From the NCBI GenBank assembly GCA_024276575.1, contig JAJRWY010000312.1:1161-65160 (forward strand): a DNA stretch of 64,000 nt. Direction: 5' to 3'. The translations under genes were made by a program, and so were the position numbers. Within the stretch, counting starts at the first letter, position 1. Every line of letters begins with the position of its first letter. The stretch is from Candidatus Binatota bacterium (GTDB lineage Bacteria; Desulfobacterota; Binatia; UBA1149; CAITLU01). The notes under the pieces are model-generated. The model was not told the origin of the DNA. It saw nothing but the letters and a program-made list of their open reading frames with translations, and did no database searches. Of this stretch, positions 2,757-64,000 are shown in pieces.

Positions 2757-3776
2757 ATGCTGTTGTTGGCGGTGGAAAGCTCCTGCGACGATACTTCTGC
2801 GGCTGTACTCGACGGACGCCGGCTGAAGTCCAATGTGGTTACGTCGCAAGACTCACTGCACGCAGATTATGGCGGTGTGGTTCCCGAGCTTGCGGCCCGC
2901 CGCCATCTCGAGAGCATCGATGCGGTGATAGCTTCGGCGCTGGATAGGGCCGGTGTCGAGTTGTGCGAGATCGAGGCGATTGCGGTCACGCGCGGGCCGG
3001 GTTTGGTCGGATCTTTGCTCGTGGGTATGGCGGCGGCCCAAGGTTTGGGTCTGCGGCTCGGCGTCCCGGTGACCGGGGTTCACCACCTGGAAGGCCATGT
3101 ACTGTCGCCTTTGATGGATTCGGAAATACAGTTGCCGCTACTGGCGATGGTGGTGTCCGGCGGGCATACGGCCGTATATTTGCTTCGTGACATAGGAGAC
3201 TATGCGGAACTTGCCTCGACTCGCGACGATTCGGCGGGGGAAGCGTTTGACAAGGGCGCCAAGATGTTGGGCCTCGGTTACCCGGGCGGCAAGATCGTTG
3301 ATGAAATGGCGGCCCGCGGCGATTCCAGAGCTTTTCGTTTTCCACGCGCCGTGGTCAAAGCCGACCCTTGGGCTTTCAGTTTTTCGGGATTGAAAACGGC
3401 TCTATGGAATCAACTCGGCGAGTTGCACGGGGCTTCCAGGCCGTCGGATTCCCTGCCCTTGGCCGATATATGTGCGTCTTTTCAAGAGGCTATTGTCGAC
3501 GTGCTCGTCGACCGCATCATGAGTTTGGCGCTACGCCTCGAGATTCCGCGCCTAGCCGTTGCCGGCGGGGTTTCCGCCAACAGTAGGTTGCGCGAGCGGA
3601 TGAAGGAGGCCTGCGACGGGGCGGGTTTCGAGTTGGCGTTTCCGAGCATGCCTTTATGTACCGACAACGCGGGGATGATCGGCTATGCGGCGCAACGGCG
3701 TTTGGAATTGGGCTTGCCCGGACAGCCGCTGGCCGCAGTCTCGCGGTTGCCGCTCGGACCCGTCCTGCGGCCGTGA
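2757..3776 (+). CDS. tsaD: tRNA N6-adenosine threonylcarbamoyltransferase (Kae1/TsaD family)
   Basis: N-terminus LLLAVESSCDDTSAAV, HHLEGH metal site, VSGGHT, and C-terminal LCTDNAGMIG. Confidence 0.92.
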   Translation: MLLLAVESSCDDTSAAVLDGRRLKSNVVTSQDSLHADYGGVVPELAARRHLESIDAVIASALDRAGVELCEIEAIAVTRGPGLVGSLLVGMAAAQGLGLRLGVPVTGVHHLEGHVLSPLMDSEIQLPLLAMVVSGGHTAVYLLRDIGDYAELASTRDDSAGEAFDKGAKMLGLGYPGGKIVDEMAARGDSRAFRFPRAVVKADPWAFSFSGLKTALWNQLGELHGASRPSDSLPLADICASFQEAIVDVLVDRIMSLALRLEIPRLAVAGGVSANSRLRERMKEACDGAGFELAFPSMPLCTDNAGMIGYAAQRRLELGLPGQPLAAVSRLPLGPVLRP

Positions 3777-3840
3777 AGTCAGCGTTTCAACTTGGTATTC
3801 GCGGCTTCTGGGCGGCATCGTCGACCGGGGACGAGGAGCG

Positions 3841-4647
3841 GTGAGCGCACGGACGGTACGTTGGGGCCAGAACTTTCTGGCCGATCGCAGCATCGCCTGT
3901 GATATTGTCGATTGGGCCGCTATCGAGGGGAAGGCGGTAGTGGAGGTCGGGCCCGGTCGCGGTGCTCTGAGCGGCTTGCTCGCCGAGCGGGCACAACGTT
4001 TGATCATGGTCGAGATCGATCCGCGCTTGGCGCAGCGCGGGTGCGATCTTGCGGCCGGCGATCCGCGCATTTCGGTGGTAGAAGCCGACGTGTTGAAGCT
4101 CGACCCATCGCAGCTTTGTAGCGGTCCGTACACGATGGTTTCCAATCTTCCCTACGAAAGCGGCACTGCCATCGTAGATCTGTTTTTGCGCCGCAGCCGG
4201 GGGCTCGAGCGCATGGTGGTGATGCTCCAGCGCGAAGTCGCTGCGCGTCTACAGGCCCCTCCGGGTTCGCGCAGTTACGGCATCCTGTCGGTAATGACTG
4301 CGTTGCGCGCCGATGTCGAAACCGGGATGGACGTGCCGCCGGCGGCATTCAAGCCGGCGCCCAAAGTGTGGTCTCGGGTTTTGCGTATCAGCCCTATAGC
4401 CGCCCCCCGCTATCAGTTGGGAGACGAAGCCTTGTTCTCCGATTTGCTGAAGAGCGCCTTTAGGCATCGGCGCAAGATGCTTCGCAATACGCTACTACCC
4501 CGGATGGCGGCGCTGGTTGGGGAGGAGGCTGCGGTTGGCGTGCTCGAATCCGCCGGGGTCGAAGCCGAGCAACGGCCGGAGCAAGTTTCGGTATCGGCCT
4601 TTGCGTCGATCTCACGGCAAGTCCACGGCTTGCTCGAAGGGGCGTGA
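3841..4647 (+). CDS. rsmA: 16S rRNA (adenine1518/1519-N6)-dimethyltransferase
   Basis: WGQNFL, SAM loop VVEVGPGRGALS, and SNLPY. The ORF-track start at 3685 overlaps tsaD, so the in-frame GTG at 3841 (VSARTVRWGQNFL) was chosen. Confidence 0.85.
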   Translation: MSARTVRWGQNFLADRSIACDIVDWAAIEGKAVVEVGPGRGALSGLLAERAQRLIMVEIDPRLAQRGCDLAAGDPRISVVEADVLKLDPSQLCSGPYTMVSNLPYESGTAIVDLFLRRSRGLERMVVMLQREVAARLQAPPGSRSYGILSVMTALRADVETGMDVPPAAFKPAPKVWSRVLRISPIAAPRYQLGDEALFSDLLKSAFRHRRKMLRNTLLPRMAALVGEEAAVGVLESAGVEAEQRPEQVSVSAFASISRQVHGLLEGA

Positions 4648-4669
4648 GGGGAGGGTGTAGGGAGCGATA

Positions 4670-5491
4670 GTGCCCGAGCTTCCGGAAGTAGAGACTATCG
4701 CGCGTTCGTTGGCGCCGTTGCTGACCGGTCGCCGGGTGCGGAGGCTAACCCTGCGGGCGACACGCTTACGCAAGCCGCTCGATTCGTCTTTGGCCGAAGC
4801 GGTTTACGGCCGTCGTATTGAAGAGGTTGGGAGGCGTGGCAAGTACCTTCTGTTGCATCTCGACGATGGTTTTACATGGATCTGGCATATGGGAATGAGC
4901 GGTTGCTTGGTCCACCAGCGTTTGGGTGAAACTCAGGCTGCACGCAAGCACGACCATGTGATTGCCGAACTCGACGATGGAGGCCGTTTGGTGTTCAACG
5001 ACCCGCGCCGTTTCGGTTTGTCGCTGGTTGATCGCATGGCCACTTGCGGCTTGTTTTCCGCCATGGGTCCGGAACTTCTCGATGTGCAGGCCTTTAATGG
5101 GCCCTACCTAGCGTCCTGGCGCCGCCGCACCGGCCGTAACATCAAGGATGTGCTGATGGATCAACGCGTCGTCGCGGGCTTGGGCAACATTTACGCCAGC
5201 GAGATACTGTTCGTGTGTGGTTTGCGTCCCACACGCCGTCTTGCACGGATGTCGCGGGCGGCCTGCGATGCTGTGGTCGTGGCAGCCAGAGAGATCATCA
5301 GCGAGGCCATAGAGCATCGCGGCACCTCAGTATCGGATTTCCTCGACGGCATCGGCAAGCCCGGAGGCTATCAGTGGCGTCTGCGGGTCTACGGGCGGCG
5401 GGGTCAGGCCTGTCCTCGCTGCGGTAGTGCTATAAAGTCGGTGCTTATATCCCAGCGTTCCAGCTTCTACTGCCCTCGCTGCCAGAAGTAG
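4670..5491 (+). CDS. mutM: Formamidopyrimidine-DNA glycosylase
   Basis: (M)PELPEVE N-terminus with catalytic Pro2/Glu3, GRRGKYL, and a C-terminal zinc finger CPRCGS...YCPRCQ. Confidence 0.92.
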   Translation: MPELPEVETIARSLAPLLTGRRVRRLTLRATRLRKPLDSSLAEAVYGRRIEEVGRRGKYLLLHLDDGFTWIWHMGMSGCLVHQRLGETQAARKHDHVIAELDDGGRLVFNDPRRFGLSLVDRMATCGLFSAMGPELLDVQAFNGPYLASWRRRTGRNIKDVLMDQRVVAGLGNIYASEILFVCGLRPTRRLARMSRAACDAVVVAAREIISEAIEHRGTSVSDFLDGIGKPGGYQWRLRVYGRRGQACPRCGSAIKSVLISQRSSFYCPRCQK

Positions 5492-5511
5492 CGGCAGCAA
5501 CCGGCTGCAAG

Positions 5512-6345
5512 TTAAGCCCCGCGCACGTCGAGGGCTTCCCGCAATGCGTCTCCCAGTGTGTTGAGAGCCAGCACGGTCAAGCTGATGGCGATTCCGGGAA
5601 AGACGGTCAGGTGCGGGGCAATGAGGAGAAAACTGCGGCCTTCGTTGAGCATGGAGCCCCAGGATGCTTGCGGCGCTTGCACTCCCAGGCCCAGGAAACT
5701 CAACCCAGCCTCTGCGGTTATTGCTCCCGCCAACCCGAAGCTGGCCTGAACCGTCAAAGGTCCGGCTAGCATAGGCATTATGTGGCGGCTGAGTATGCAC
5801 AACGGCGTTACGCCCAGTGATCGGGCCGCTTCGACGTGCTCGCGTTTCTTCAGCGCCAGCACTTCGCCGCGGACCAAGCGAGCGTAGCCCGTCCATCCGA
5901 TCAGACTCAAGGCTAGCACCACGTTGACCAGCGACGGGCCCAGCACTGCGCTCATTGCGATTGCCAGCAGTATCCCGGGGAAGGCCATCAGTATGTCGAT
6001 GAAACGTGAGATCCAGAAATCGACCGCAGCTCCGGCATAGGCTGATATGGCGCCGACGGAAACTCCGATAAGCAATGAAAAACTAATAGTTAGCAGTCCA
6101 ACGTAAAGGGATACACGAGCCCCGTGCAGGAGCCGGCTAAGTTGGTCCCTGCCCAGCTTGTCCTGCCCCAACGGATGCTCGATGGAGGGTGGCGCGAGGT
6201 TCTCCGCGAGTTGTTGGCGGTCGGGCGGGTAGGGCGCGAGCAGGTCCGCACCGATCGCGGCGGTGCATAGTATCGCGATTACTGCCGATCCGAAGGCAAT
6301 GCCACGCCGGCGAGCCCTGCCTTTGTTTTCAGTCGGAGTCGTCAA
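5512..6345 (-). CDS. ABC transporter permease, peptide/nickel type (DppC/OppC-like)
   Basis: Multi-TM BPD-type permease with EAA loop EAARSLGVTPLCILSRHIMP. It overlaps the upstream permease gene by 17 nt. Confidence 0.85.
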   Translation of the reverse strand: MTTPTENKGRARRRGIAFGSAVIAILCTAAIGADLLAPYPPDRQQLAENLAPPSIEHPLGQDKLGRDQLSRLLHGARVSLYVGLLTISFSLLIGVSVGAISAYAGAAVDFWISRFIDILMAFPGILLAIAMSAVLGPSLVNVVLALSLIGWTGYARLVRGEVLALKKREHVEAARSLGVTPLCILSRHIMPMLAGPLTVQASFGLAGAITAEAGLSFLGLGVQAPQASWGSMLNEGRSFLLIAPHLTVFPGIAISLTVLALNTLGDALREALDVRGA

Positions 6346-7258
6346 GGCGGATTCGCGGGTCGGCCAGCGCGTAGGCCAGGTCAGTGAGCAGGTTTATCAA
6401 TACGTAAGCCATGGCAATTAGCAACACGCAGCCCTGAACCAGGGGGTAGTCGCGTGTTTGAATGGCTTCGAGAGTGAGGCGGCCGATGCCCGGCCATGCG
6501 AAGATAGTTTCGGTGATCACGGCGCCGGCAAGTAGCGAACCGAACTGAAGGCCGAGCAGTGAGATGAGCGGCGTAAGTGCGTTCGGGAAGGCATGGACCA
6601 GGATGATACGCCGCCGGGTCAAGCCCTTGGCCGCTGCGCTACGAACGTATTCTTCCTGCAACGATTCGAGTACCGCGGCGCGGGTCATGCGGGTCAGTAT
6701 CGCCGCCATCGATGCGCCTAAGGTCAGTGCCGGCAGTATCAGGTGCTGTGGGCTACCGTTGCCGGAAACGGGCAGCCACCCCAGTTCGATCGAGAAAGCC
6801 ATTATGAGCATCGGTCCCAGCCAGAAGTTGGGAATCGCTACGCCCAGGAGGCTTATTCCAAGCGTGATTCTGTCGCTGGGCGAATGTGGCCGGGCGGCCG
6901 AAAGTAAGCCGAGCGGTAGCGCGATCAACACTGCGAATGCGCCCGCGGCCAAGCTCAATCGCAGGGTTGCGGGGAAGCGCTCGGCTAGCAGTTCACGCAC
7001 CGGACGTCCGCTGTGCACCGACTCCCCGAGATCTCCGCGTGCAAGGCCGCTGAGGAAAGTCCCGTATTGCACGAGTAGCGGGCGGTCGAGCCCGAGCTTC
7101 TCGCGCAGTTCCTGGCGATCCGCGTTGGCGGCGCTCTCGCCGAGCATGATGTCGACGGGATCGCCGGGAATGAGATGGAGCAGGAGAAACACCACGCTGG
7201 CCACGCCGATTATGGTGGGCACGAAGAATGCAAGACGTTTAGTTAGGTAACTTGACAC
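6329..7258 (-). CDS. ABC transporter permease, peptide/nickel type (DppB/OppB-like)
   Basis: Typical N-terminus YLTKRLAFFVPTIIGV, LIPGDP, and EAA-like loop YVRSAAAKGLTRRRII. GTG 7258 is preferred over the ORF-track start at 7318 (uncertain). Confidence 0.82.
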   Translation of the reverse strand: MSSYLTKRLAFFVPTIIGVASVVFLLLHLIPGDPVDIMLGESAANADRQELREKLGLDRPLLVQYGTFLSGLARGDLGESVHSGRPVRELLAERFPATLRLSLAAGAFAVLIALPLGLLSAARPHSPSDRITLGISLLGVAIPNFWLGPMLIMAFSIELGWLPVSGNGSPQHLILPALTLGASMAAILTRMTRAAVLESLQEEYVRSAAAKGLTRRRIILVHAFPNALTPLISLLGLQFGSLLAGAVITETIFAWPGIGRLTLEAIQTRDYPLVQGCVLLIAMAYVLINLLTDLAYALADPRIRLDDSD

Positions 7259-7575
7259 TGTCGTTCCCGGCGTTGGCTGAGAGGGTGGCGGTGCCCGGCG
7301 TGTCACTACTCGTTCCATTGCCGGCGCCAGCGCGTGTGACTAGTGATTCCCACGCCGCCGCTTTCGTTTATGATACAGGAATTGCGCCTGGGTGTTCGGG
7401 TGTTGCCGCGCTAGGCCGGGACCGGCCATTGATCGCCGGGCTTGGCGTGCCGGACCTCGCGCCGCGTCCCTGCCGCCGAGCCGGCGGCTGCGTGGCAGAC
7501 CTGGAGACGTCGAGAGGGCGATGCGCGCGGGCCCGCGGTTCTTGAACGCGATTCGCCGGGCGCTCGAAGATAGCT

Positions 7576-36013: not shown

Positions 36014-36164
36014 TCCTTATCTTTCACCCTCTTTGCATTTGCGTGAACTCGATTACGCGCTCACCGCAACGCTAAGGTGCGGGACTTAGCACCTGCCGCC
36101 CGCTTGCGCAGGCCGGTTGCTGTGGCTTCACAGGGCCCATTCCCTCCGCCACTCTGAATAAGGA
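36014..36164 (-). promoter_or_regulatory. SAM-I (S-box) riboswitch aptamer
   Basis: Minus strand: P1 TCCTTAT...ATAAGGA. The conserved core reads TTCAGAGTGGCGGAGGGAATGGGCCCTGTGAAGCCACAGCAACC, then GGTGCTAAGTCC, then GAAAGATAAGGA. It closely matches the S-box consensus (CTTATCAAGAG.GGTGGAGGGACTGGCCC.ATGAA.CC.GCAACC ... GGTGC.AATTCC ... AGATAAG). Confidence 0.9.
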
Positions 36165-53266: not shown

Positions 53267-53284
53267 CATGCGCGGCGGTTGTTT

Positions 53285-55516
53285 ATGAGCGGCGCACCTA
53301 GGCCGGACATCTCCATTTCGCGCGAGGAAAGGGCGCGCCGACGCCGTGAGGTTGCGGTGATTCTCGCGGCCGGTCTTGCGGTGGTGTTCTTTGCCGTGTG
53401 GGAAATCGGCCGGCCGGCTGGGCGTGGAGCCACCGGTAACGTTGTCTCCTTCCTACTGGTAAACCTCAACATAGTTCTGCTTCTAGTCGTGGCGTTCCTG
53501 GTTTTGCGAAACATCGTGAAGCTGGTGATTGACCGGCGCCGGCGTGTCCCGGGTAGCCATCTTCGCGGGCGGCTGGTCTTTGCTTTCGTTACCATTGCGC
53601 TATTCCCGGCGGGTTTGATGCTCGTCATTTCGTATCAATTCGTGACCAGCAACATCGATGATTGGCTCGACAGCGAGGTCGAGCAGTCGCTCGAAGGTGC
53701 CTGGGAACTGGCCCATACCTACTATCGGGATTCTGCGGATGCGGCGCTTGCGCATGCGCGGGCCCTGGCTGCGGAGGCTGTGGAGAAGCGGCTGCTGCAG
53801 CCGTCTTCACGGACGAAATTGCGAGAGTTGGTTCTCGAACACCAGCGCGCTTACAAGCTGGGAACCATCCAGATAGTCAACTCCTCAGGCGAACAGGTAC
53901 TGGCTTTGTTCAACGAATCCACTCCTACCGGGATGCCGCTATATCCGGACGCTGAATTGATGTCAGAGAACCTCGAAGGGCGTGAGGCTACCAAAGTAGA
54001 GGCTTACGGCGAAAGTGACGTGATCAGCGGTGCGGTGCCGATACTCGACAGTAAAGGAAAAGTGCTGGGTGCGGTGGTGGTTGATTATTTCGTTGAGCGC
54101 AGTATCCGGCGCTGGAGTGAAGACATACTGAAATCCTTCAGCGAGTTCCGCCAGCTAAAGCTCAGCAAACAGCCTTTCAAGAATCTCTACGCGATTACTC
54201 TTGCTCTGGCCGCGGTCGCGGTAGTGTTCTCGGCTACATGGCTGGGTATTTATATGGCCCGGGGGGTTACCGACCCCATTGGGCGGTTGGCGGAAGCTAC
54301 TGAACGGGTTGCCGGCGGTGACTGGGAGGTTCGGCTCGAAGAAGCAGGCGGTGACGAAGTCGGCATGCTGGTCAGTGCTTTCAACACCATGACTTCACAG
54401 CTCAAGGCAACCCACGATGATCTCGATGAGAGGCGCCGTTACATCGAGAATGTGCTCGGACATATCGAAGCGGGTGTCGTGTCCATCGATGAAGAGGGGC
54501 GCATCGGTACCGTGAACTCAGCCGCAGTGTCGTTGTTGGGCCTCGACGCTGAAGGGCTTGCGGGGCTAGCTGCGGTAGAGACGTTTCAGGAGGCCGGTTA
54601 CTCGGAAATGGCGTCGCTGTTGAAAGATTTGAGTGCCGGAGTCGTAGCTTCCGGCACCCGTATCAACGTCAAGCGGGAACAGGAAGGGCGGACGCTACTG
54701 GTTACTGCGACTGAGTTGAAGCGCGTGAGTGGTGAGCGGGCGGGCTTCGTTCTTTTTGTCGAAAACGTATCACAGATAGTCGAAGTTCAGAGGATGGAGG
54801 CCTGGCGCGAGGTTGCTAGGCGTATCGCCCATGAGATCAAGAATCCACTGACTCCCATCCAACTGTCGGCGCAAAGGCTGGGCAGGCGCTTGCGTTCACG
54901 GCTCGGCGGGGAAGACGCCGAGCTACTGGAGCGCAGCGTGGAAACGATCGTCTCTCAAGTAGACACATTGAAGCAGTTGGTCAACGAGTTCTCGCGCTTT
55001 GCGCAAAAGTCGGAAGGAGACAAGCGCCTACACGATTTGAACCAGTTGGTCGAGGAGACGATCCCTTTGTACAGCGAGTCGCGCCCTGACATCAAAGTGG
55101 AATTCTCCCGTGCCGAAGAGCTTCCGGCACTGATGTTGGACCGGCAGTCGGTAAAGCGCGTTCTGATCAATCTGCTCGATAATGCGGTGGCGGCTCTTTC
55201 GGCGGACGAGGCCGTGCGTGAAAGCGGCGTCGAGCCGCAAATAGAACTTCGGACCTCTTTTGATGAAAGAACCTCGCGCGTGGTTCTCGAAGTCGCGGAC
55301 AACGGCCCAGGAATCGCTGCCAAGGACAAACCGCGGGTATTCGAGCCGTACTTCTCGACCAAGGACGATGGGACCGGCCTCGGCCTGGCTATTGTTGCTT
55401 CGGTGGCTGCCGACCACCAAGCCTTCGTTCGAGTCAGGGACAACCATCCGCGAGGCAGCCGTTTCGTGATAGAATTTCCCATCGTGCCCAAGGAGAGAGA
55501 GGTCCGAGATGCCTGA
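53285..55516 (+). CDS. Sensor histidine kinase, NtrY-like architecture (TM block - HAMP - PAS - HisKA - HATPase)
   Basis: N-terminal TM helices, HAMP (DPIGRLAEATERVAGGDWEVRLE), a PAS-like segment, H-box HEIKNPLTPIQLSAQRL, N-box LINLLDNAV, G1 DNGPGI, and G2 GTGLGLAIV. ATG 53285 (TTG 53279 is possible). Confidence 0.85.
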   Translation: MSGAPRPDISISREERARRRREVAVILAAGLAVVFFAVWEIGRPAGRGATGNVVSFLLVNLNIVLLLVVAFLVLRNIVKLVIDRRRRVPGSHLRGRLVFAFVTIALFPAGLMLVISYQFVTSNIDDWLDSEVEQSLEGAWELAHTYYRDSADAALAHARALAAEAVEKRLLQPSSRTKLRELVLEHQRAYKLGTIQIVNSSGEQVLALFNESTPTGMPLYPDAELMSENLEGREATKVEAYGESDVISGAVPILDSKGKVLGAVVVDYFVERSIRRWSEDILKSFSEFRQLKLSKQPFKNLYAITLALAAVAVVFSATWLGIYMARGVTDPIGRLAEATERVAGGDWEVRLEEAGGDEVGMLVSAFNTMTSQLKATHDDLDERRRYIENVLGHIEAGVVSIDEEGRIGTVNSAAVSLLGLDAEGLAGLAAVETFQEAGYSEMASLLKDLSAGVVASGTRINVKREQEGRTLLVTATELKRVSGERAGFVLFVENVSQIVEVQRMEAWREVARRIAHEIKNPLTPIQLSAQRLGRRLRSRLGGEDAELLERSVETIVSQVDTLKQLVNEFSRFAQKSEGDKRLHDLNQLVEETIPLYSESRPDIKVEFSRAEELPALMLDRQSVKRVLINLLDNAVAALSADEAVRESGVEPQIELRTSFDERTSRVVLEVADNGPGIAAKDKPRVFEPYFSTKDDGTGLGLAIVASVAADHQAFVRVRDNHPRGSRFVIEFPIVPKEREVRDA

Positions 55517-56780
55517 GACGATTTTGCTTGTAGATGACGATGCCAAGGTTCGCGAATCGATACGTGGCGTTCTCGGAGATGAAGGCTATGAGGTCGTAAC
55601 TGCATCCAACGGCGTTCAGGCCATGGATGCGGTTGCGGTGCATAACCCCGATCTCATCTTGCTTGATTTGTGGATGCCGGAGATGGATGGCATCGAGTTC
55701 TTACAGCAGGCTGGGTCCGGGGACTCGGCGATTCCGGTGATCGTGATCTCGGGCCACGGCAACGTGGAAACGGCGGTCCGCGCGACCAAGCTTGGAGCCG
55801 TGGATTTCGTCGAGAAGCCGTTTTCCATCGACGGGCTTCTAGCGGCGGTAAACGGAGCCTTGAATCGTTTCTCCCCCGACGAAGGTGCCGCTAGCGTCGT
55901 GGCCGGGCAATTGCCTTCGGCCGGTGGCGCGACGGCTGGTGTCAGCCAGCGCACGTTGGCGCAAAGCGTGGTCGGTGGCGGACTCGGCTTACATAGCGGG
56001 GTGAGGACCGGATTGATCTTGCAGCCGATGCCGCCGGGGAGCGGGATAAGTTTTGCGAGTATAGCGGGCGAGGGCAAAGTGCTCGCACATGTGGACAACG
56101 TGGATTCCACCGGCTACGCGACCACACTGTTCGACAAGGGGACGGTTGCGCGAACGGTAGAACATCTCATGGCGACCCTGCACGCTTATGGGATCACCAA
56201 TCTGCTGGTGAAGATAGAAGGCGAAGTGCCGATTCTAGACGGCTCAGCGGCCGAACTCTGCCAGTTGATAGACTCGGTTGGTGTAGAAGACCAGCCCTCG
56301 GCCATCGCTCCCATAGTGATCGAGGAGGAAGTGCGCATAGACGCCGGTCCGGACGAATTCATCGTGATTCGTCCTCATGACGGTTTCGAAGTAACCTACG
56401 AACTTTCTTATCCGCCGCCGGTGGGGGAACAGAGTTACACATTTTGCTTCGAAGGAGCCGGGTCGTTTCGTTCGCAGATCGCTCCGGCGCGTACCTTCGG
56501 CTTTGTCGAGGAGATCCGCGCGTTGGAAGGAGCGGGGCTAGGCCAGGGAGGACAGCTGAGCAACTTTATACTGATCGGCGAGGGCAGGATCGTCAACACC
56601 GAATTACGCTTCCCCGAGGAACTCGCGCGCCACAAGATCCTTGATATCATGGGAGATTTCTATCTCCTCGGGGCACCGATACGAGGCTCGCTGCACGCGC
56701 GAAAAACCGGGCATTCGCAGAACATCGCGTTGATGCGATTGCTAAGCGAGGGCAGAGGGAGAAGCGCGTCGAGTCGTTGA
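55509..56780 (+). CDS. lpxC: Response-regulator receiver domain fused to UDP-3-O-acyl-N-acetylglucosamine deacetylase (REC-LpxC)
   Basis: REC: DDD 9-11, D53 (LILLDLWMPEMDG), S81, K103 (EKPF). LpxC: QRTL at residue 147, GLGLHSG, TVEHL (E218/H219), PILDGSA, ARTFGF, RHKILDIMGD (H375, D379, D383), KTGHS (H402). The start overlaps the kinase stop (ATGCCTGA). Confidence 0.85.
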   Translation: MPETILLVDDDAKVRESIRGVLGDEGYEVVTASNGVQAMDAVAVHNPDLILLDLWMPEMDGIEFLQQAGSGDSAIPVIVISGHGNVETAVRATKLGAVDFVEKPFSIDGLLAAVNGALNRFSPDEGAASVVAGQLPSAGGATAGVSQRTLAQSVVGGGLGLHSGVRTGLILQPMPPGSGISFASIAGEGKVLAHVDNVDSTGYATTLFDKGTVARTVEHLMATLHAYGITNLLVKIEGEVPILDGSAAELCQLIDSVGVEDQPSAIAPIVIEEEVRIDAGPDEFIVIRPHDGFEVTYELSYPPPVGEQSYTFCFEGAGSFRSQIAPARTFGFVEEIRALEGAGLGQGGQLSNFILIGEGRIVNTELRFPEELARHKILDIMGDFYLLGAPIRGSLHARKTGHSQNIALMRLLSEGRGRSASSR

Positions 56781-56800: not shown

Positions 56801-56838
56801 CGTAGCCGCCCGTCGTGCGGCAAGCCTTAGCTGCATGT

Positions 56839-57639
56839 TTACTTGAGCCCTAGCAGGCGGGGTCTACCGAGGGGGCCGCTTAGACGGTAGCTGCGCCAGC
56901 CCTCTGTGTTCTCGGTGGCTTTGGGAAGCAGGCCGAGCAGGACCCGCGCTTTGGCCGAAGAGTCAGCGGCTCGCACCTTGAAATACAGATCTGTTTGGTA
57001 GCTACCGTCGTCCCTGCGCGAGATGTGGCCGCGGGTCAGATGCCATTGCAGGCCGGCGGCCCTAGCCTCTGCGGATTCGATCTCGAGCTTGCCGTTGCTC
57101 AACCGACCCTTGGCTGAAACCGCATCGAACTCCCATTCGCCGATGGCCATGCCCGCCTTGCTGATGCCGCGCCCGTCCGCGTTGGCGAGCGGCAGGTGCC
57201 CGCTCACGCTGCCATCATTTGCTTCGAGCTCCATACTGCCGTTTCCGTCCGTTACGTCGATTCGTGCGTTGAAGTCGCCGCTTAGAGAAAGAAACCCCAA
57301 GCGAACGCACTTGGCGGGGTCGCCGTCAAGCAAGCGCAGTTGGAAATCGTCGGGGCCCGTAAAGTTACCCTCGATCGACCCTCCGCAGTAATCGGTGTGG
57401 AAACCTCCGAACAGTCCCAGGTATGCCGACTGAAGGTTCAATTCATAACCGTCTTTGGCAAGCCGTAGCCCACCTACTCTATAACCGAAGGGAAACGCCG
57501 GCCGTGCCGAAAGCAGCGATACTTGAACACCGCGTGGTGAAAGGCCCGCACGCAGTACGCTGGCGAGAAGACGCTCGTGCGGAAAGGTGACGGCTGCGAA
57601 AAGCGCCAGCAGGGCCGCGAACACCAGCAAGCGTTTCAT
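56839..57639 (-). CDS. gspN: Type II secretion system protein N (GspN-like)
   Basis: Last gene of the gsp operon. It has a single N-terminal anchor (MKRLLVFAALLALFAAV) and the size of GspN. The call rests mainly on position. Confidence 0.55.
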   Translation of the reverse strand: MKRLLVFAALLALFAAVTFPHERLLASVLRAGLSPRGVQVSLLSARPAFPFGYRVGGLRLAKDGYELNLQSAYLGLFGGFHTDYCGGSIEGNFTGPDDFQLRLLDGDPAKCVRLGFLSLSGDFNARIDVTDGNGSMELEANDGSVSGHLPLANADGRGISKAGMAIGEWEFDAVSAKGRLSNGKLEIESAEARAAGLQWHLTRGHISRRDDGSYQTDLYFKVRAADSSAKARVLLGLLPKATENTEGWRSYRLSGPLGRPRLLGLK

Positions 57640-58193
57640 GTCTTGGACAGCGTTGCGGCCAGCAGTACCAGGTCGAAGCGATCGCGGTCGTCGTAGCGCT
57701 TCTTCATGTCGAGCCTTCGAACGTCGATCGGCCTTTCCGCGTTCTCGATGCGCTTGAGCAGTGCCACGATCTCGGCCAATGACACTTGAGACAGCTTGAT
57801 CTCGACGGTGCTCTCCAAAGTTCCATCCTCGAGTTCCCGGCGGCTAGGATTCATCGACGCTACGCTTTCGGCGCTGACGGCCGCCGCAGTGGCTTTGTCC
57901 ATGAAAGAGAATAGTGAGAAATTCTTCGCGTCTTTCTCCGCTCCGGGCTTGCGCGCGGTGGCACCGGATTGTGCGACTCTGATCTGGCCGGCGAGTATCT
58001 TCATCTCGGCTAGGTCTCTGCGTAAAGAGGCAATCTCGGCCTCTATGCGGCGGCGTCCGGCAGTCAGGGGTTGTATGACCAGCGAGTAGGCTACGACCGC
58101 GGCGACGATAGTGCCGAGTATTGCCAACAAGCGCTGTTCCCGGGGACTGAGACGGGCAAGAATCGCGCCCAGCTTGCGCAGAAGTTCGTTCAT
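57636..58193 (-). CDS. gspM: Type II secretion system protein M
   Basis: LSPREQRLLAILGTIVAAVVAYSLVIQPL TM followed by a coiled coil and a small C-terminal domain. 4-nt overlaps on both sides. Confidence 0.7.
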   Translation of the reverse strand: MNELLRKLGAILARLSPREQRLLAILGTIVAAVVAYSLVIQPLTAGRRRIEAEIASLRRDLAEMKILAGQIRVAQSGATARKPGAEKDAKNFSLFSFMDKATAAAVSAESVASMNPSRRELEDGTLESTVEIKLSQVSLAEIVALLKRIENAERPIDVRRLDMKKRYDDRDRFDLVLLAATLSKT

Positions 58194-59653
58194 CCCTTAG
58201 CGCCTCCACGGAGCGAAGCGGAGCCCAAGGGCTCGAGCAGAAGTTGGAATGCGACGCCGTTGCCGCCGGCTGCCGCGTGTACGTCTTTGACCTCCACTTC
58301 TCCGAAGTGGCCGCTGTCGATCAGCGCTTGTTGCAACAGAGTGACGGCTTCGAAGGAGGCCCCGTTTCCGTTGAGCCTTACATTGTTGCCGCTCACGTAG
58401 AATCCGTCGAACTCGACATCCACATCCTTTGGAACGGCTTGAGACATGAGTGCCAGCACCGTTAGGGGTGTTACTGAAGCGCCGCCCGGGGTTGCCCTTG
58501 CGCCGTTGAGTTCGCGCAGCCGCATCTCCATTTTCAGCCGTGCGCCCTTGCCCTGGCGCATTCCGGGCATTGCCTTGGCGAACACGGCCTCGCTTTGTTT
58601 GCGCAGTTCGGCTCTTTCGGAAGCAAGCCGTACATAGCTGACAGTCGAGGCGAGCAGGGCCAGGCCTAGCGCAGTACCCGCCCAGGGCAATAAAGGCCTG
58701 AGTTCGCTCGATAACTCCGACCAGCGGCCGAAGGTTCCCGAACGCCGTGGCGAAAAATCAAGTAGCGGGGAAGCGATGCCGCCGGTGGCGGCGAACAGTA
58801 GCCCGACCGCCGGCGCACAAGTTCTCCAACGAGCGTCGTCCACACCTTCTAGCGGGCAGCGCTCCGGCAGTTGTTCGATGCTGAAGTGATCGCCGTCACG
58901 ATTCAGATTCTGCGCGATGGCTGCCGCACGCGGCCCTCCCAGCACTATACGCCGGGGGCAGGTCTTCATGCTACGCAGCGCGTACAGCACGTTCCTCGAA
59001 AGTAGAGCGTCGTCACAGGCGCCTATAACGCGCAGGTCCAGCAGTGCTTCCCCACCGAGAACTCCGATGGTAGCGCCGTCGACGGATGCGTCGACAATGG
59101 CTACAGTGCCTTTGTCTTCGTAACTGATTGAGCGGCGATAAATCTCCAAGGTTGCACAAGGAGCCCAGACTATGCGGTCCGCGGACAGCCCCCACTCGGA
59201 AAGACGATTCCCGAGCTTCTCGATGGCCGAGTTCGCGGCCATGGCCGCCAGTACCGGACCTCTGCGGCGGGAGTCGGTAAAGTCGTAGGCGGTAGTGGCT
59301 TCATCGAGCGAAAGCGGGACATGCTCCTCGAGCGCCGGTCCGACGGCTTGTCCCAGCCTCCTGCGGTCGCGGAAGGGGAGGTCGAGGAAGCGGTACAGCG
59401 CTGTTTCAGCCGGCAAGGTGGCGATGACACGGTCCCACGAGTCTTTGCAGAACTCTGGTATCGCCGCGTTGCCGTCGAACTCGGCGTCGCTCAGGGAAAG
59501 CAGCTTGAACGAGCCGATGGTGGCTTCGGCTCTGGCTGCGCACAGCCTCCGGCTGCTCAGGTGTAGGGCAAGTATCTTGGTGCTCACTCCGCTTGCGTTC
59601 CTATGGAGCCGGCTTTCCGCCGGAGCCGAAAAGGCGCGGCCCGAGATCGGCAA
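58190..59653 (-). CDS. gspL: Type II secretion system protein L (actin-like N-domain, TM, PilN-like C-domain)
   Basis: Architecture and position between gspK and gspM. Start uncertain: TTG 59653 overlaps gspK by 53 nt, and GTG 59587 is the alternative. Confidence 0.7.
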   Translation of the reverse strand: MPISGRAFSAPAESRLHRNASGVSTKILALHLSSRRLCAARAEATIGSFKLLSLSDAEFDGNAAIPEFCKDSWDRVIATLPAETALYRFLDLPFRDRRRLGQAVGPALEEHVPLSLDEATTAYDFTDSRRRGPVLAAMAANSAIEKLGNRLSEWGLSADRIVWAPCATLEIYRRSISYEDKGTVAIVDASVDGATIGVLGGEALLDLRVIGACDDALLSRNVLYALRSMKTCPRRIVLGGPRAAAIAQNLNRDGDHFSIEQLPERCPLEGVDDARWRTCAPAVGLLFAATGGIASPLLDFSPRRSGTFGRWSELSSELRPLLPWAGTALGLALLASTVSYVRLASERAELRKQSEAVFAKAMPGMRQGKGARLKMEMRLRELNGARATPGGASVTPLTVLALMSQAVPKDVDVEFDGFYVSGNNVRLNGNGASFEAVTLLQQALIDSGHFGEVEVKDVHAAAGGNGVAFQLLLEPLGSASLRGGAKG

Positions 59654-60650
59654 ACCGTGCCGGTGCCGAATCGTCGATGTCGGCTATGTTGGGCCCCCGC
59701 CTCGGCAGAAAATAGACTACATGTATTTCGTCCAAATCGCGATAAAGCACGGCCTCCACCGATTGGAATACGCCGTCAACTTCGCCGCTAGACAGCACTC
59801 GGAAGTAACTACTGCTGTATCGAAACATCTTGTCCAGCTTGCTCTTGCTGCGGAATGCGGTCTTCCAACCCTCGAGTTCGAGCAGCATCTGCGAGTTTCG
59901 TATCGGTGTTTGCTCGCGGTAGGCCAGGAGAGTGCCGACCAGCACACCGTCACGCAAGGCCGGGTCCAAGGCTTCGAGCACTGCGGCCGGCGCCGTATTG
60001 GGATTGATCTTGTCCTGGGTTTCCGGAAGCACCGTACACAGTGGGCGCAGGGCACTCAGGCGGTGAGTGTCGAATCCGCGGATGAGGGCGAGTTCGGCGA
60101 AGCTGCGCAAGGCGGAGTTTCTCGGTGGGTAAGGCACGCCGATACTTTGATAGTAGTCGCGCTCGGCGCCCACAGGATCGCTGCTTACCGCGTTGTTGCG
60201 GTCGAGCCAATCCGCCAACGCAGCGGCAAGCTCAGGTTCGAATTCGAGCTGGGCCAGAATCTCCATGAAACGCCGGCCGTTCGTCGAATGGACACCCGAA
60301 CCCAGTAGATTCAGGTTGAAGCGTGCGTTTTCGTCACTGATACGCAGGAAGATGGTGCCGTCCTCGCTCTGTATGGGAGGTAGCGGAGCGGCCCACAGTT
60401 CACTCAGTGCATCCACCGTCGACATGCGAGCGTCGAGCCTCAGTATCTCCGAGGCCAGTTCGATTCCCGATTCGGCCAGTAGCGCGGCACGCCTTGCCTT
60501 GAGCCAGTGGGCGGTGCGACGGTAGTCGACCTGGGCATCGTAGGTGAACTCGATCACCAGCAAGGTCAGTAGCGACATTGCCACCAATGTCATCAGCAGT
60601 GCGATCCCACGCTGGCTCCTGTTCGCGGCCGCCCCGCAGCAGCGTGTCAT
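59601..60650 (-). CDS. gspK: Type II secretion minor pseudopilin K
   Basis: ATG 60650. Prepilin-like QRGIALLMTLVAMSLLTLLVIEF lacks Glu5, as in GspK, and there is a large C-terminal domain. ATGA overlap with gspJ. Confidence 0.8.
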   Translation of the reverse strand: MTRCCGAAANRSQRGIALLMTLVAMSLLTLLVIEFTYDAQVDYRRTAHWLKARRAALLAESGIELASEILRLDARMSTVDALSELWAAPLPPIQSEDGTIFLRISDENARFNLNLLGSGVHSTNGRRFMEILAQLEFEPELAAALADWLDRNNAVSSDPVGAERDYYQSIGVPYPPRNSALRSFAELALIRGFDTHRLSALRPLCTVLPETQDKINPNTAPAAVLEALDPALRDGVLVGTLLAYREQTPIRNSQMLLELEGWKTAFRSKSKLDKMFRYSSSYFRVLSSGEVDGVFQSVEAVLYRDLDEIHVVYFLPRRGPNIADIDDSAPARFADLGPRLFGSGGKPAP

Positions 60651-61357
60651 CGCGTTCCCGTTTCCGCAGCCAGCGGCAGCAGTACCGCAGAGGTCAACTC
60701 TACTGCGGGACCTTCTTCCGCCGTTACCGCAACGGTAGTTTCGACCAGGGCCGGTGCAATATCTTTGTCGGCTCCGGGGCCTACCGAATCCCACTGCTCG
60801 AGCCACCGCTTGCGGTTGTAGAAACGAAGACTGAGTTCCGTTACCGAATCATCGAGCAACACACCCGGTGTCTCCTCAAAATCCACTTCTTCCCGCAACG
60901 GAGGCCGGATTTCGTAGCGCCATAGTTGGGTCCGGTCTTGAATTCTATAGACGACGCGGACCTGGTCGCCCCTGGCCGGACCGGCCCAGGACGCCTCGAT
61001 AGGAGCTTCGGGCGAAGGCACACCGCGTGCCGAGAGGCAGGTAAAATCCAGTACAGTGGCGCTATCGGAAGATAGTTCGAAGCGGTCCGGACCTGGGTAG
61101 AAGAATCGTTTGAGATCCCTGTTGTAATCCTGGGTCATGAAAGAAGCCCGCAGGTCTCTTTCGATGATGTCGATCAACGTACGTGCCCTCGAGTAGGCTT
61201 CGCTACGTTGGCCGACGTATCTGCGCGTGGAAACCGTGCGTGTGAAGGTGCCGTAGAGTCCGGCCGCGAGTAGTGCGAAGATCGCCATGGCTACGGTGAG
61301 TTCGAGCAAGGTCATGCCCCGTTGCCGCTGCTCGGCGCTGTAGGCTACGGCAGCCAT
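60647..61357 (-). CDS. gspJ: Type II secretion minor pseudopilin J
   Basis: ATG 61357. Prepilin N-terminus QRGMTLLELTVAMAIFALLAAGL. Confidence 0.8.
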   Translation of the reverse strand: MAAVAYSAEQRQRGMTLLELTVAMAIFALLAAGLYGTFTRTVSTRRYVGQRSEAYSRARTLIDIIERDLRASFMTQDYNRDLKRFFYPGPDRFELSSDSATVLDFTCLSARGVPSPEAPIEASWAGPARGDQVRVVYRIQDRTQLWRYEIRPPLREEVDFEETPGVLLDDSVTELSLRFYNRKRWLEQWDSVGPGADKDIAPALVETTVAVTAEEGPAVELTSAVLLPLAAETGTR

Positions 61358-61767
61358 CAATAGGACTGTTGCCTCATCACAACGGCCATGGTCGCCAGCA
61401 CTTGCGGGTCGCCGCTTCTCGATACACTTACCCGCACGCGCCGTAGCGTTTCGATGGCAGTGGGCATGACTTCGCGTGTCCATACGAAATCTTCACTGCC
61501 GGCTCCTCCGTAGCGAAGGTCCGAGGTCCCGAAGAGATCCTTGTCGCTGCTGAAGCGCCCGTGTTCAATACCGAGTTCCGGATACTCGTCTACTCGCGTC
61601 ATTGTGATCAAATGAGAGGCCAGCAAGCCGGCGCGGGTCAAGTCCAGTGTTTCGGCACTGAGCCTTATGTTGCGAGCGTGCAAGCCCAGCAGGCTTACGA
61701 TTGCGATTCCCAACAGCGCGGTTGCGATCAGAACCTCGAGCAGCGTAAACCCACGGCGATCAGCCAT
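61357..61767 (-). CDS. gspI: Type II secretion minor pseudopilin I
   Basis: MADRRGFTLLEVLIATALLGIAIVSL prepilin N-terminus, 136 aa. Confidence 0.8.
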   Translation of the reverse strand: MADRRGFTLLEVLIATALLGIAIVSLLGLHARNIRLSAETLDLTRAGLLASHLITMTRVDEYPELGIEHGRFSSDKDLFGTSDLRYGGAGSEDFVWTREVMPTAIETLRRVRVSVSRSGDPQVLATMAVVMRQQSY

Positions 61768-62344
61768 TGCCGTTCTCCAGGCCGGAGACTGTCACTTTCC
61801 CGTTCATCATGTTTATCGCGATGTGTTTGCGTTCACCGTTATCGGCCACCACGTCGAAGCTCCACTCGCCGAAGCCGCCTTCGGGTAGGAAGTAGAGATC
61901 GGCCAAGCCGCTATAGCTCGTCCCTTCCGCACCGGCGAAAGAGTCGAATTCGACCCCCGCCGGGAACTGCAGCGGTTCTGAGTATGGGTCCCATACTTGA
62001 CGAAATCCAGGATCCTCGCCGACGCTGGAGTCGCTATCTGCCGGCTCGGCGGAAGCCGTCCGGTCCTGTTGCCCGGTTTGCTCGAAAGGAAGGAATACAC
62101 TTACCGTATAGAAGTCGCGATCGAGATCCGCCCGCAGCCTATAGACCCGGCCGCGAAGCGCCGCCTCGTCGTAGAGATAAGAGATCTGTGCAGCTAGGCG
62201 CCGGGTGGTGGACTTGAGCCGCGAAGAACCGAGTTCCGGAAAACGCGGCGCGACCACCGACAAAAGAATGCCGATTATCACGATGACTAGGGTCACCTCT
62301 ATCAGGGTAAACCCCGCTCGTGGGTTACGGTTACATGCGGCCAT
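61760..62344 (-). CDS. gspH: Type II secretion minor pseudopilin H
   Basis: ATG 62344. PRAGFTLIEVTLVIVIIGILLSVVAPRF. Confidence 0.75.
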   Translation of the reverse strand: MAACNRNPRAGFTLIEVTLVIVIIGILLSVVAPRFPELGSSRLKSTTRRLAAQISYLYDEAALRGRVYRLRADLDRDFYTVSVFLPFEQTGQQDRTASAEPADSDSSVGEDPGFRQVWDPYSEPLQFPAGVEFDSFAGAEGTSYSGLADLYFLPEGGFGEWSFDVVADNGERKHIAINMMNGKVTVSGLENGNG

Positions 62345-62403
62345 ACCGGCTTTTTTCGATTCGTGATTGAGCGGCCGCGGGCCTGGCACTGAACTATCCT
62401 TGG

Positions 62404-62859
62404 CTAGAAATCTCGCGAGTCGATATCCGCGTCGAAATCTTCGCCCCCTTCTTCGCCGTCGGCACCGAGACTTCTGAGGACGTAAGTCTTTCCGTCACTT
62501 GCGAACAAGAATTCACCACCCCAGGGGTCGATGGGCACCCGCTCCATATAGCCGCCTTTGCGCCAGTTACGCGGCAGTGGCGCGATTTCCGGTTCGGTCA
62601 CCAAGGCTTCGAGCCCCTGGGCCGTGGTCGGGTATATGCCCGAGTCCAGCTTGTACATTTGCAGGCCTTCTTCCAGCGCGCGTATGTCGGCTTGCGCCTT
62701 TACCACCCTGGCTTCATCGGTCCGGCTTATGAAGCGAGGCGCAGCCAGAGATATAAGGAGTCCGAGAATCAGTACGACCACCAGGATCTCAATGAGCGTG
62801 AAGCCCGCTTCGCCTGTACGGCGGCCAGACCCGAACGGTAGCAACGTCTTTTTGTCCAT
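62404..62859 (-). CDS. gspG: Type II secretion major pseudopilin G
   Basis: ATG 62859. GEAGFTLIEILVVVLILGLLISLAAPRF, EARVVKAQADIRALEEGLQMYKLDSGIYPT, and DPWGGEF. Confidence 0.9.
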   Translation of the reverse strand: MDKKTLLPFGSGRRTGEAGFTLIEILVVVLILGLLISLAAPRFISRTDEARVVKAQADIRALEEGLQMYKLDSGIYPTTAQGLEALVTEPEIAPLPRNWRKGGYMERVPIDPWGGEFLFASDGKTYVLRSLGADGEEGGEDFDADIDSRDF

Positions 62860-62918
62860 GCGGCAAAAACCCCGGCGACAGGAAAATCTTGTGTAGCAAA
62901 AAAACACGATGGTAAATC

Positions 62919-64000
62919 CTAACGAACCAATTGGTTCATCTCAAAAACCGGAAGCATGATGGCGAGCAACACAAACAGAACCACTCCAGCCATCAGCACT
63001 ATCATCGCCGGTTCGGCCAGCCTTGCAAGTGTGTCGATCTGCTCCCCGACTTCTTCGTCGAGAGCTTCGGCCGCTTTGGCGAGCATTCCTTCGAGGTCGC
63101 CGCTACGCTCTCCGACCGCCAGCATGTCCACTATCATAGGGTGAAAAAGTGGGTTGCCTTCGAGGTGCTCAGCCAGTGACTCTCCTTCGGATACTGCCGT
63201 TTCTGCGCGTGCGAGCGCGTCATTGACCAGTAGGCTGCCCGAAGCGCTGCGGCTTATGCGTAAGGCGTCTACCAGGGTGAGGCCGCCCGAGACCATAGTG
63301 GATAAGGTTTGCGCGAATCGCGCTACCGCAAGGTCGCGGAACAGGCCACCCGCAACCGGTGTGGCCAGCAACAGGCTTTCGAAGCGGCGGCGCCCTTCGT
63401 CTCTGGACACCGCGACTCGAATTCCCGCCAGCAACGCCAGCAAGCCCAGGAACATGACCGCTCCGTAGTTGCCCACCGCCGAGCCTGCGGCCATCAACAT
63501 GCGCGTGGGTAGCGGCAACTGCTGGTTGGCTTCGGCAAAAACGCGGGTTACCTGTGGAACCACATAGGCGAGCAAAAACAGAACGATGCCACCGCCGACC
63601 AGGGACATGATGGCGGGGTATGTCATTGCCGCCCGTGCGCGCGACTGGAGCCGGGCGCTGGCTTCTGCGTGGTCGGCGATGCGTTCACACACGGAATCGA
63701 GAGCGCCGCTGGCCTCGCCGGCCTCGACCATTGCCACGTAGATTGCCGGGAACACTGACGGATGTCGCGCGAGCCCCGCGGCGAAGCTTTCACCTTCCAG
63801 TAGCCGTACGCGGATGTTGTCGAGTGCGGCTCCCAGGCGCGCTTCCACTCCGCGTTTGCGGATCGAAGCCACAGCCTCGACCAATGGTACACCGGCACGT
63901 AGCAGCGTCGCCAACTGCCGCATTGCCCGCGAGAGAACGCGTGGGGAGATGCGCCTCGAGAACAACGTCAATGGGTGGTTGAAGAGCGATCGATCGCTCT
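62919..64000 (-). CDS. gspF: Type II secretion inner-membrane platform protein F, 5'-truncated by the window edge
   Basis: Two GspF repeats (LSRAMRQLATLLRAGVPLVEA; LAVARFAQTLSTMVSGGLTLVDAL) and three TM segments. The frame remains open upstream of the TTG at 63971 to nt 64000. Confidence 0.88.
   Translation of the reverse strand, partial: SDRSLFNHPLTLFSRRISPRVLSRAMRQLATLLRAGVPLVEAVASIRKRGVEARLGAALDNIRVRLLEGESFAAGLARHPSVFPAIYVAMVEAGEASGALDSVCERIADHAEASARLQSRARAAMTYPAIMSLVGGGIVLFLLAYVVPQVTRVFAEANQQLPLPTRMLMAAGSAVGNYGAVMFLGLLALLAGIRVAVSRDEGRRRFESLLLATPVAGGLFRDLAVARFAQTLSTMVSGGLTLVDALRISRSASGSLLVNDALARAETAVSEGESLAEHLEGNPLFHPMIVDMLAVGERSGDLEGMLAKAAEALDEEVGEQIDTLARLAEPAMIVLMAGVVLFVLLAIMLPVFEMNQLVR

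Follow-up and report, generated by a model that had tools for sequence, protein, structure and literature searches.

A receiver–LpxC fusion encoded behind an NtrY-type sensor kinase suggests two-component control of lipid A synthesis at the enzyme itself

In the window, a 64,000-nucleotide stretch of contig JAJRWY010000312.1 (assembly GCA_024276575.1) from Candidatus Binatota bacterium, two adjacent genes encode a sensor histidine kinase of NtrY architecture and a protein in which a phospho-receiver (REC) domain is fused to LpxC. These genes probably form a genuine two-gene module: a two-component system with LpxC as the output of its response regulator, in which the NtrY-like sensor would phospho-control LpxC directly. 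The fusion suggests an uncharacterised way of switching outer-membrane synthesis by a two-component signal. The step that LpxC catalyses is essential, controls the flux into lipid A and is a major target for antibiotics, and how lipopolysaccharide (LPS) synthesis is matched to the envelope state is an active question. So far, LpxC is known to be regulated by proteolysis (FtsH/LapB/YejM, Lon), by partner proteins and through transcription; a receiver on the enzyme itself, wired to a periplasm-facing kinase, would add a fourth and very direct route.

The two open reading frames (ORFs) were confirmed on the + strand, and the second (55509..56780) is one continuous frame without a stop whose product has 423 aa. 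As the original prediction had proposed from the letters of the DNA, this single polypeptide carries both domains, with Pfam matches to Response_reg at residues 5–115 and to LpxC at residues 147–412. The Response_reg match (PF00072; 55521..55853, + strand) has an E value of 2e-31 and 108.9 bits against a cutoff of 30.2, and spans the profile from 1 to 111 of 111. In an AlphaFold2 model, five strand-helix pairs in residues 4–119 fit the CheY-like (beta-alpha)5 fold. The receiver hallmarks listed earlier are all present, namely DDD at 9–11 (including D9/D10), the phospho-acceptor D53 (codon GAT at 55665–55667), S81 and K103, as is F100.

The best NCBIfam match of the receiver was the NtrX equivalog NF051870 (128.4 bits against a cutoff of 600, profile positions 3–120 only), and its best solved relatives were Brucella NtrX 4d6x and 5m7n, in agreement with the NtrX flavour first attributed to it. 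NtrX itself is defined by REC, an AAA+ module without the GAFTGA loop and a Fis-type helix-turn-helix (HTH), with a score >600. The window protein falls below the equivalog cutoff and lacks both AAA+ and HTH, and it is therefore no NtrX; its receiver is NtrX-like.

The LpxC domain (55947..56744, + strand) matched Pfam PF03331 above cutoff, with an E value of 2.2e-77 and 260.6 bits over profile positions 1–266 of 268, and the NCBIfam lpxC equivalog TIGR00325 with 228.1 bits against a cutoff of 187.25. The motifs TVEHL, ARTFGF, RHKILDIMGD and KTGHS, on which the prediction of an active enzyme had been based, are present with the metal ligands intact in an alignment with P. aeruginosa LpxC, to which TVEHL, ARTFGF, HKILDxxGD and GH are identical. 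The key residues E218, H219, T329, F330, H375, K376, D379, D383 and H402 are all found; from LpxC enzymology we take H219, H375 and D379 to be the zinc ligands and E218 and H402 the catalytic Glu/His pair, with T329 presumably the oxyanion Thr, K376 and D383 helpers, and H402 the general-acid His. By every sequence criterion tested, the window protein is an LpxC. It does not belong to the bifunctional LpxC/FabZ proteins (PRK13188), whose model it matched with 181 bits against a cutoff of 465 and in the LpxC region only. Only 11 residues follow the LpxC domain, with no long C-terminal tail, and across the family this tail is 4–17 aa and unconserved. Such a short, variable tail indicates that the degron of the E. 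coli type, which FtsH recognises in the long C-terminal tail of E. coli LpxC (reviewed in PMC12444477), is absent from the family.

Between the two domains lies a low-complexity linker of ~27 aa rich in Ala, Gly, Ser and Pro (residues 120–146; 55866..55946, + strand). The Gly/Ala-rich linker described earlier is therefore real, and it is predicted to be disordered, with a predicted local distance difference test score (pLDDT) <50 for residues 121–141 in AlphaFold2 with the family alignment. Across the family the linker is 28–48 aa and rich in Ala, Arg, Gly, Pro and Ser, and in the alignment it sits where longer relatives carry the AAA+ and HTH modules. The model as a whole consists of two confident domains, with a mean pLDDT of 81.5 and a predicted template modelling score (pTM) of 0.78; by rough estimate, this whole-chain pTM is above what would be expected for two freely tethered domains.

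The upstream gene (53285..55516, + strand) encodes 743 aa from the ATG at 53285, and an in-frame TTG at 53279 is an alternative start. The Pfam domains of its product follow the order NtrY_N, HAMP, PAS, HisKA and HATPase_c, which is the NtrY-type architecture; together with four predicted membrane segments and the H-box HEIKNPLTPI, this bears out the earlier assignment of the kinase. In a hydropathy scan, three N-terminal transmembrane segments (53354..53638; ~residues 24–42, 53–76 and 97–118) fell inside the NtrY_N match, and a fourth was placed at 54191–54259. The topology inferred from hydropathy predicts a periplasmic sensor domain of ~175 aa (53651..54184; ~residues 123–300), which is probably Cache-like, as dCache_3 scored slightly over its Pfam cutoff and sCache_3_2 slightly under. 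The HAMP domain (54254..54406; PF00672, E 5.6e-16) and a cytoplasmic PAS domain (54443..54763; PF00989/PF08448) precede the HisKA dimerisation/phospho-acceptor domain, which holds the H-box (54803..55015; PF00512), and the HATPase_c domain (55139..55483; PF02518, E 4.9e-20), in which the N, G1 (DNGPG) and G2 (GTGLGL) boxes are intact; all these features lie on the + strand. An H-E-x-x-N pattern is typical of bifunctional kinase/phosphatases. Over its full length the kinase is 35–39% identical to the NtrY of another locus, L087, whose NtrY_N match is strong. The gene downstream of the window kinase is NtrX-derived (receiver only), not ntrX.

The two genes are tightly joined. At the junction (55490..55516, + strand), as read from the sequence, a purine-rich run resembling a Shine-Dalgarno site, AAGGAGAGAGAGG, precedes the 8-nt start/stop overlap ATGCCTGA at 55509–55516, which the original prediction had pointed out; the junction reads GAG ATG CCT GAG, and the kinase stop TGA occupies 55514–55516. 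In relatives the junction is a 4-nt overlap (L004) or a gap of 10–20 nt (L001, L087 and L089). On the other side, the ruvB stop is 12–18 nt from the kinase start. No receiver other than that of REC-LpxC, and no second lpxC, was found in the 64-kb window.

Both Pfam domains were present in 120/120 of the best database matches, which are 57–70% identical to the window protein, have lengths of 417–447 aa and derive from NCBI, JGI, ENA and Logan assemblies. Among these 120 relatives, D9, D10, D53, F100 and K103 of the receiver and E218, H219, T329, F330, H375, K376, D379, D383 and H402 of LpxC are invariant, and S81 is kept in at least 90%. In addition, a scan of species-representative genomes yielded ~30 full-length REC-LpxC fusions, under the labels Binatia, Deltaproteobacteria, Myxococcales, Polyangiaceae UTPRO1, Bacterium HR30, Thermodesulfobacteriota, Nitrospirales, Desulfurellales, Aminicenantes and Candidatus Entotheonella. 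The fused proteins are annotated as 'LpxC' at NCBI and as 'NtrX' at JGI, and both current names conceal the fusion. Some taxon labels (Hyphomicrobiaceae, Limnocylindrales, Clostridia and Promethearchaeota, for P0013, P0029, P0055, L021, L030 and L036) contradict the Binatia- or Desulfobacterota-like gene sequences that bear them, and that of P0055 is also at odds with its genomic context; these contradictions probably reflect mis-binning or mislabelling.

The gene order of the window (ruvCAB-kinase-REC-LpxC) recurs on the long contigs L001, L004 and L005 from other samples, and a kinase homologue was found directly upstream of the fusion in all Binatia-type loci examined by tblastn with the window kinase as query. 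At L002, labelled Nitrospirales, the fusion is 57% identical and the neighbours are different, yet an NtrY_N-HAMP-HisKA-HATPase kinase again lies upstream. At this locus and at L024, which is labelled likewise, an Omp85/BamA-like gene fragment stands directly upstream of the kinase (positions 1–2400), and a 46-aa ORF with a weak prepilin N-methylation motif lies between the kinase and REC-LpxC.

To place the enzyme itself, the LpxC domain alone was searched exhaustively with HMMER against 1.84 billion cluster representatives. Its closest relatives (at least 216 bits) are nearly all N-terminally extended, and ordinary LpxCs of 270–320 aa start at 214 bits or below. The extended proteins fall into three length groups: ~400–460 aa with LpxC from ~residue 140–185, ~480–510 aa with LpxC from ~residue 205–235, and ~590–736 aa with LpxC from ~residue 310–460. 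These scores and lengths place the window LpxC in a separate clade whose members are extended at the N-terminus. Eight signature residues set the fused clade apart from ordinary LpxCs (T167, G168, L/M174, S200, Y227, K235, C251 and L355); K235 is E/D and C251 is V in the ordinary enzymes. As candidates, these eight residues may mark a receiver-contact surface.

In Pfam searches the length groups resolve into three architectures, REC-AAA+-lid-LpxC (~730 aa; for example P0123 and P0124), REC-HTH_8-LpxC (~500 aa; P0131 and P0143) and REC-LpxC (P0121), and the proteins of 535–615 aa that were scanned are long forms without their N-terminus. Two loci that had first matched by their LpxC part only carry a 728-aa ORF in which Response_reg, Sigma54_activat and AAA_lid_14 are followed by a Fis-type HTH-like segment and LpxC. 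In the long forms the Walker A motif is intact, Walker B reads D-S and the GAFTGA loop is absent; NtrX is likewise not known to carry this loop. The best NCBIfam match of the long forms is the NtrX equivalog, over positions 3–452 and with 249–335 bits, below the cutoff of 600. A long form directly follows a DUF4390 gene and a strongly scoring NtrY (L087), and a REC-HTH-LpxC form follows DUF4390 and an NtrY-like kinase. The DUF4390 gene ahead of ntrY lies at 5047–5631 of L087 and at 3028–3627 of L089, which are loci of long and intermediate forms; Binatia-type loci are without it, and there ruvB precedes the kinase.

In a rough neighbour-joining tree, the extended LpxCs form one clade in which long, intermediate and short forms are interleaved. 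As this tree has no support values, nearest neighbours were checked in the REC and LpxC parts separately. For the REC-HTH-LpxC protein P0143, the nearest relative is the long form P0137 (81% identity in LpxC, 73% in REC); for P0131, of the same architecture, it is the long form P0145 (69% and 57%); and for the REC-LpxC protein P0150 it is the long form P0139 (72% and 64%). The receivers of P0143 and P0131 are only 49% identical to each other, and that of P0150 is 48% identical to the window receiver. Since the nearest relatives of these reduced forms are long forms in both REC and LpxC, the AAA+ module was lost in at least three independent events.

Some lineages have shed the HTH as well, to judge from these architectures, and the receiver and LpxC remained joined throughout. 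The same comparisons indicate that the starting point was a complete NtrX-like REC-AAA+-HTH regulator to which LpxC had been added, and that AAA+ and then HTH were later deleted from it repeatedly. The original prediction had held that the enzyme replaced the output of an NtrX-like regulator; its relatives uphold the descent from NtrX, but the simple replacement gives way to an LpxC appended to the whole regulator first. That the transcription-factor part was discarded repeatedly and REC-LpxC was kept argues that the selected coupling is that of the receiver with the enzyme. The series from NtrX::LpxC through REC-HTH-LpxC to REC-LpxC, run through several times, is an unusually clear conversion of a transcription factor into a regulated enzyme, and it connects NtrYX, a pleiotropic system, with LPS control across phyla.

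Proteins that looked like stand-alone members of the clade were rejected where their contigs were inspected. P0140 and P0125 lie on ~1 kb contigs and are hence truncated gene calls, and P0151 comes from a frameshift-rich contig that breaks up both REC and the kinase into different frames. On that ENA contig (L086, 5400–8900; Binatia-type synteny), ruvB, kinase and receiver are each broken across frames, which produced the false stand-alone call; it is a caution for censuses of domain architecture. P0164 is also on a ~1 kb contig; P0170 (283 aa) groups with basal fused members in the rough tree and was outside the contig inspection. The truncations and frameshifts on the inspected clade contigs mean that there is no evidence of natural fission among them. 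For the nearest stand-alone LpxCs, the sole named source is a Manganitrophaceae metagenome-assembled genome, which is uninformative. A receiver-only match at a Binatia locus (L067) was rejected as a canonical NtrX because its ORF has only 270 aa.

Taken together, the findings can be arranged in the following scheme. The ancestral form, encoded behind ntrY, carried LpxC at the C-terminus of a complete NtrX-like REC-AAA+-HTH protein, and the Binatia lineage, like several others independently, lost AAA+ and HTH, so that receiver, flexible linker and enzyme remain. The kinase/phosphatase would set how far D53 is phosphorylated, guided by a periplasmic or envelope signal or, via PAS, by a redox signal, and the state of the receiver would alter LpxC output at the protein level, by activation or by inhibition. 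The most probable route is CheB-like, with the receiver docking on the catalytic domain or being released from it; alternatively, the receiver could dimerise in a phospho-dependent manner via its alpha4-beta5-alpha5 face. The long, disordered and variable linker and the monomeric hydrolase output make CheB the best analogy. That the coupling would be driven by phosphorylation is suggested by the invariant pocket, the tightly linked kinase gene, the lack of another receiver nearby and the retention of REC when the DNA-binding parts were lost.

A broader proposal is that the rate of the committed LPS step is set by an envelope or redox sensor of the NtrY type, which directly phosphorylates the enzyme's own receiver, and that the NtrX::LpxC fusions imply control of LpxC and LPS as an ancient core function of NtrYX. 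We put this forward tentatively, at a little under an even chance. If true, such an ancient role would explain the over-expression of lpxC and over-production of LPS in alphaproteobacterial ntrYX mutants. REC-LpxC lends itself to experiment: it is a small, soluble protein, the usual phosphomimic tools apply to it, and variants with D to E and D to N changes occur naturally.

Several points weigh against phospho-control of LpxC by the kinase. We infer phosphotransfer between the kinase and REC-LpxC, the effect on catalysis and the nature of the signal from sequence. The NtrY_N match of the window kinase, at 25.7 bits against a cutoff of 23.2, is barely above threshold. The AlphaFold2 evidence on the packing of the receiver against LpxC consists of the pTM, so that the docking is putative, and the evidence on lpxC copy number covers the 64-kb window rather than whole genomes. 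In addition, tblastn with the window kinase detected no adjacent kinase homologue at the Aminicenantes-type and Entotheonella loci. The acceptor pocket is intact in 65/70 of the fused proteins of the wider clade with a readable acceptor position, and the exceptions fall in one subclade comprising Entotheonella, P0150 and P0153. Both Entotheonella genomes (L027, 5983–7314, and L028) have Glu at the acceptor position, P0150 has Asn, and in P0153 the pocket is fully degenerate. The Entotheonella genomes, the only ones of this subclade with readable surroundings, have mutS, lolA and rseP as neighbours of the fusion and no adjacent kinase. The kinase-less loci and the lost acceptor Asp together show that the fusion can persist without phosphorylation.

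The alternative that survives best, though we consider it unlikely, is that REC-LpxC is an accessory paralogue, with a stand-alone lpxC elsewhere carrying the essential function and the fusion adding conditional flux or acting on a variant substrate. The separate clade of the fused LpxCs (at least 216 bits, as against 214 or below) and its eight specific residues, K235 and C251 included, would fit a paralogue. However, the window protein scores above the lpxC equivalog cutoff with all catalytic residues kept, and its similarity to P. aeruginosa LpxC is about usual for cross-phylum orthologues. The fusion also sits in stable housekeeping synteny, with ruvCAB in Binatia and lolA-rseP in Entotheonella, the apparent stand-alone clade members on the inspected contigs are truncation or frameshift artefacts, and the 64-kb window is without a second lpxC.

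Somewhat less likely again is that the receiver controls the abundance of LpxC and not its catalysis, in that phosphorylation unmasks or conceals a signal for degradation or brings in a protease or unfoldase. Proteolysis by FtsH or Lon does control LpxC in other bacteria (PMC12444477), and as the E. coli-type C-terminal tail is absent in the family, another handle for proteolysis would be needed. At the Aminicenantes-type locus L021 (labelled Clostridia; 2972–7341), the stop of a 1009-aa ClpB-like double-AAA+ gene overlaps the REC-LpxC start; this arrangement may hint at unfoldase-linked LpxC turnover in the Aminicenantes-type lineage. The ClpB-like gene also has a weak tetratricopeptide-repeat match, and a divergent Ser/Thr protein kinase gene lies upstream of it. 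Nevertheless, the ClpB-like neighbour occurs in one lineage only, no conserved protease or adaptor gene adjoins the fusion at Binatia-type loci, and no degron was identified in the sequence.

Very improbable, in our view, is a receiver retained as an evolutionary relic that serves only structure or solubility, beside a constitutively active LpxC and a kinase that signals elsewhere. The persistence of the fusion in Entotheonella and its relatives, with E/N or a degenerate pocket and, in Entotheonella, no adjacent kinase, speaks for it. Conversely, the pocket does not vary among the 120 Binatia-type proteins, 65 of the 70 clade members have it intact, and the kinase lies upstream with an overlap or a gap of ~10–20 nt in most loci read, across divergent genomes and neighbourhoods. 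The window holds no other receiver for the kinase, and REC was kept at each deletion of AAA+ or HTH. Furthermore, D to E is a classic phosphomimic substitution, which suggests that the Entotheonella lineage is locked in one signalling state rather than decayed. Finally, an assembly or gene-calling artefact joining a receiver gene to lpxC, an a priori possibility only, for a metagenome-derived contig, can be set aside with near certainty, since the same architecture, in a continuous frame without a stop here, occurs in 120/120 best matches from many independent NCBI, JGI, ENA and Logan assemblies and in ~30 species-representative genomes, which disposes of the chimeric join that the original prediction had asked to have checked.

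Phospho-control of LpxC by the adjacent kinase is the reading that we consider most likely, and the rest of the locus can be described briefly. The gene order in the window is obg, APP1-like, rlpA-like, yebC, ruvC, ruvA, ruvB, kinase and REC-LpxC, followed by a convergent type II secretion cluster. A terminator-like hairpin, a weak feature (56814..56837, + strand), lies within the 58 nt that separate REC-LpxC from the convergent type II secretion gene. Scans for promoters and terminators around the operon gave site counts at chance level; hence no transcription unit is claimed beyond the tight gene spacing. The type II secretion cluster (56839–63971, − strand), which includes GspM, GspL, GspK ... 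GspG and GspF, converges on REC-LpxC, and this arrangement is also kept in L001, L004 and L005; a 266-aa gene without a Pfam match lies in it where a GspN-like gene might sit. Further away, an S-adenosylmethionine (SAM) riboswitch was found at 36014–36164 (− strand; Rfam RF00162, 75.8 bits against a gathering score of 44.4), and RF00162 was the sole Rfam family to reach threshold in the window.

Two-component control of lpxC has been reported at the level of transcription. In R. sphaeroides, NtrYX lowers the lpxC transcript and LPS, and the transcript is up 8.8-fold in the mutant (PMC7240162); this effect is indirect, because there is no NtrX binding site at lpxC (PMC7240162). In C. crescentus, NtrYX represses lpxC (PMC12444477). 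For the D. vulgaris Hildenborough regulator DVU2934, lpxC is the sole target (Rajeev et al. 2011, PMC3333781), and in S. fumaroxidans lpxC adjoins an operon orthologous to DVU2931-DVU2934 (PMC3333781). A dedicated two-component input to LpxC therefore has a precedent at the transcription level. No description of a receiver-LpxC fusion was found in full-text literature searches, and the words 'receiver' and 'fused' are absent from a 2025 review of lipid A regulation (PMC12444477). The original prediction knew of no characterised example, and the searches agree as far as the fusion is concerned, but transcriptional control of lpxC by NtrYX and DVU2934 had already been published.

Of the known systems, NtrY/NtrX of Brucella, Rhodobacter sphaeroides and Caulobacter crescentus resembles the window pair in the domain order of the kinase and the NtrX-like receiver; the long relatives, which follow DUF4390-ntrY, match the NtrX model over its whole length, and lpxC is a shared physiological target. 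NtrX, however, acts on DNA and on lpxC transcription, whereas the window protein is without AAA+ and HTH and has LpxC covalently attached. DVU2931-DVU2934 is similar in being a dedicated two-component system, from a related lineage, with lpxC as its target, and the S. fumaroxidans neighbourhood is of the kind from which a regulator-LpxC fusion could arise; there, in contrast, regulator and enzyme are separate proteins and the control is transcriptional.

FtsH/LapB/YejM in E. coli and Lon in some Alphaproteobacteria likewise regulate the committed, irreversible step of lipid A synthesis after translation (PMC12444477), but they do so by proteolysis and partner proteins, in E. coli with a C-terminal degron, whereas the fused family combines a short variable tail with a phospho-receiver. 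The bifunctional LpxC/FabZ proteins (PRK13188) are also natural fusions of LpxC to a second domain; in them, however, the partner is a C-terminal pathway enzyme and the fusion is metabolic, and the window protein is without a FabZ part.

Response regulators that combine a receiver with an enzyme are a known kind, and LpxC as the output domain is not previously described among them. CheB, PleD/WspR and RpfG share with the window protein the N-terminal receiver, the flexible linker and the C-terminal enzyme. In CheB, the unphosphorylated receiver blocks the methylesterase active site until phosphorylation. The window protein differs from CheB in that docking is here predicted by analogy, and in that its output enzyme is unrelated and comes from an essential biosynthetic pathway rather than from signalling or adaptation.

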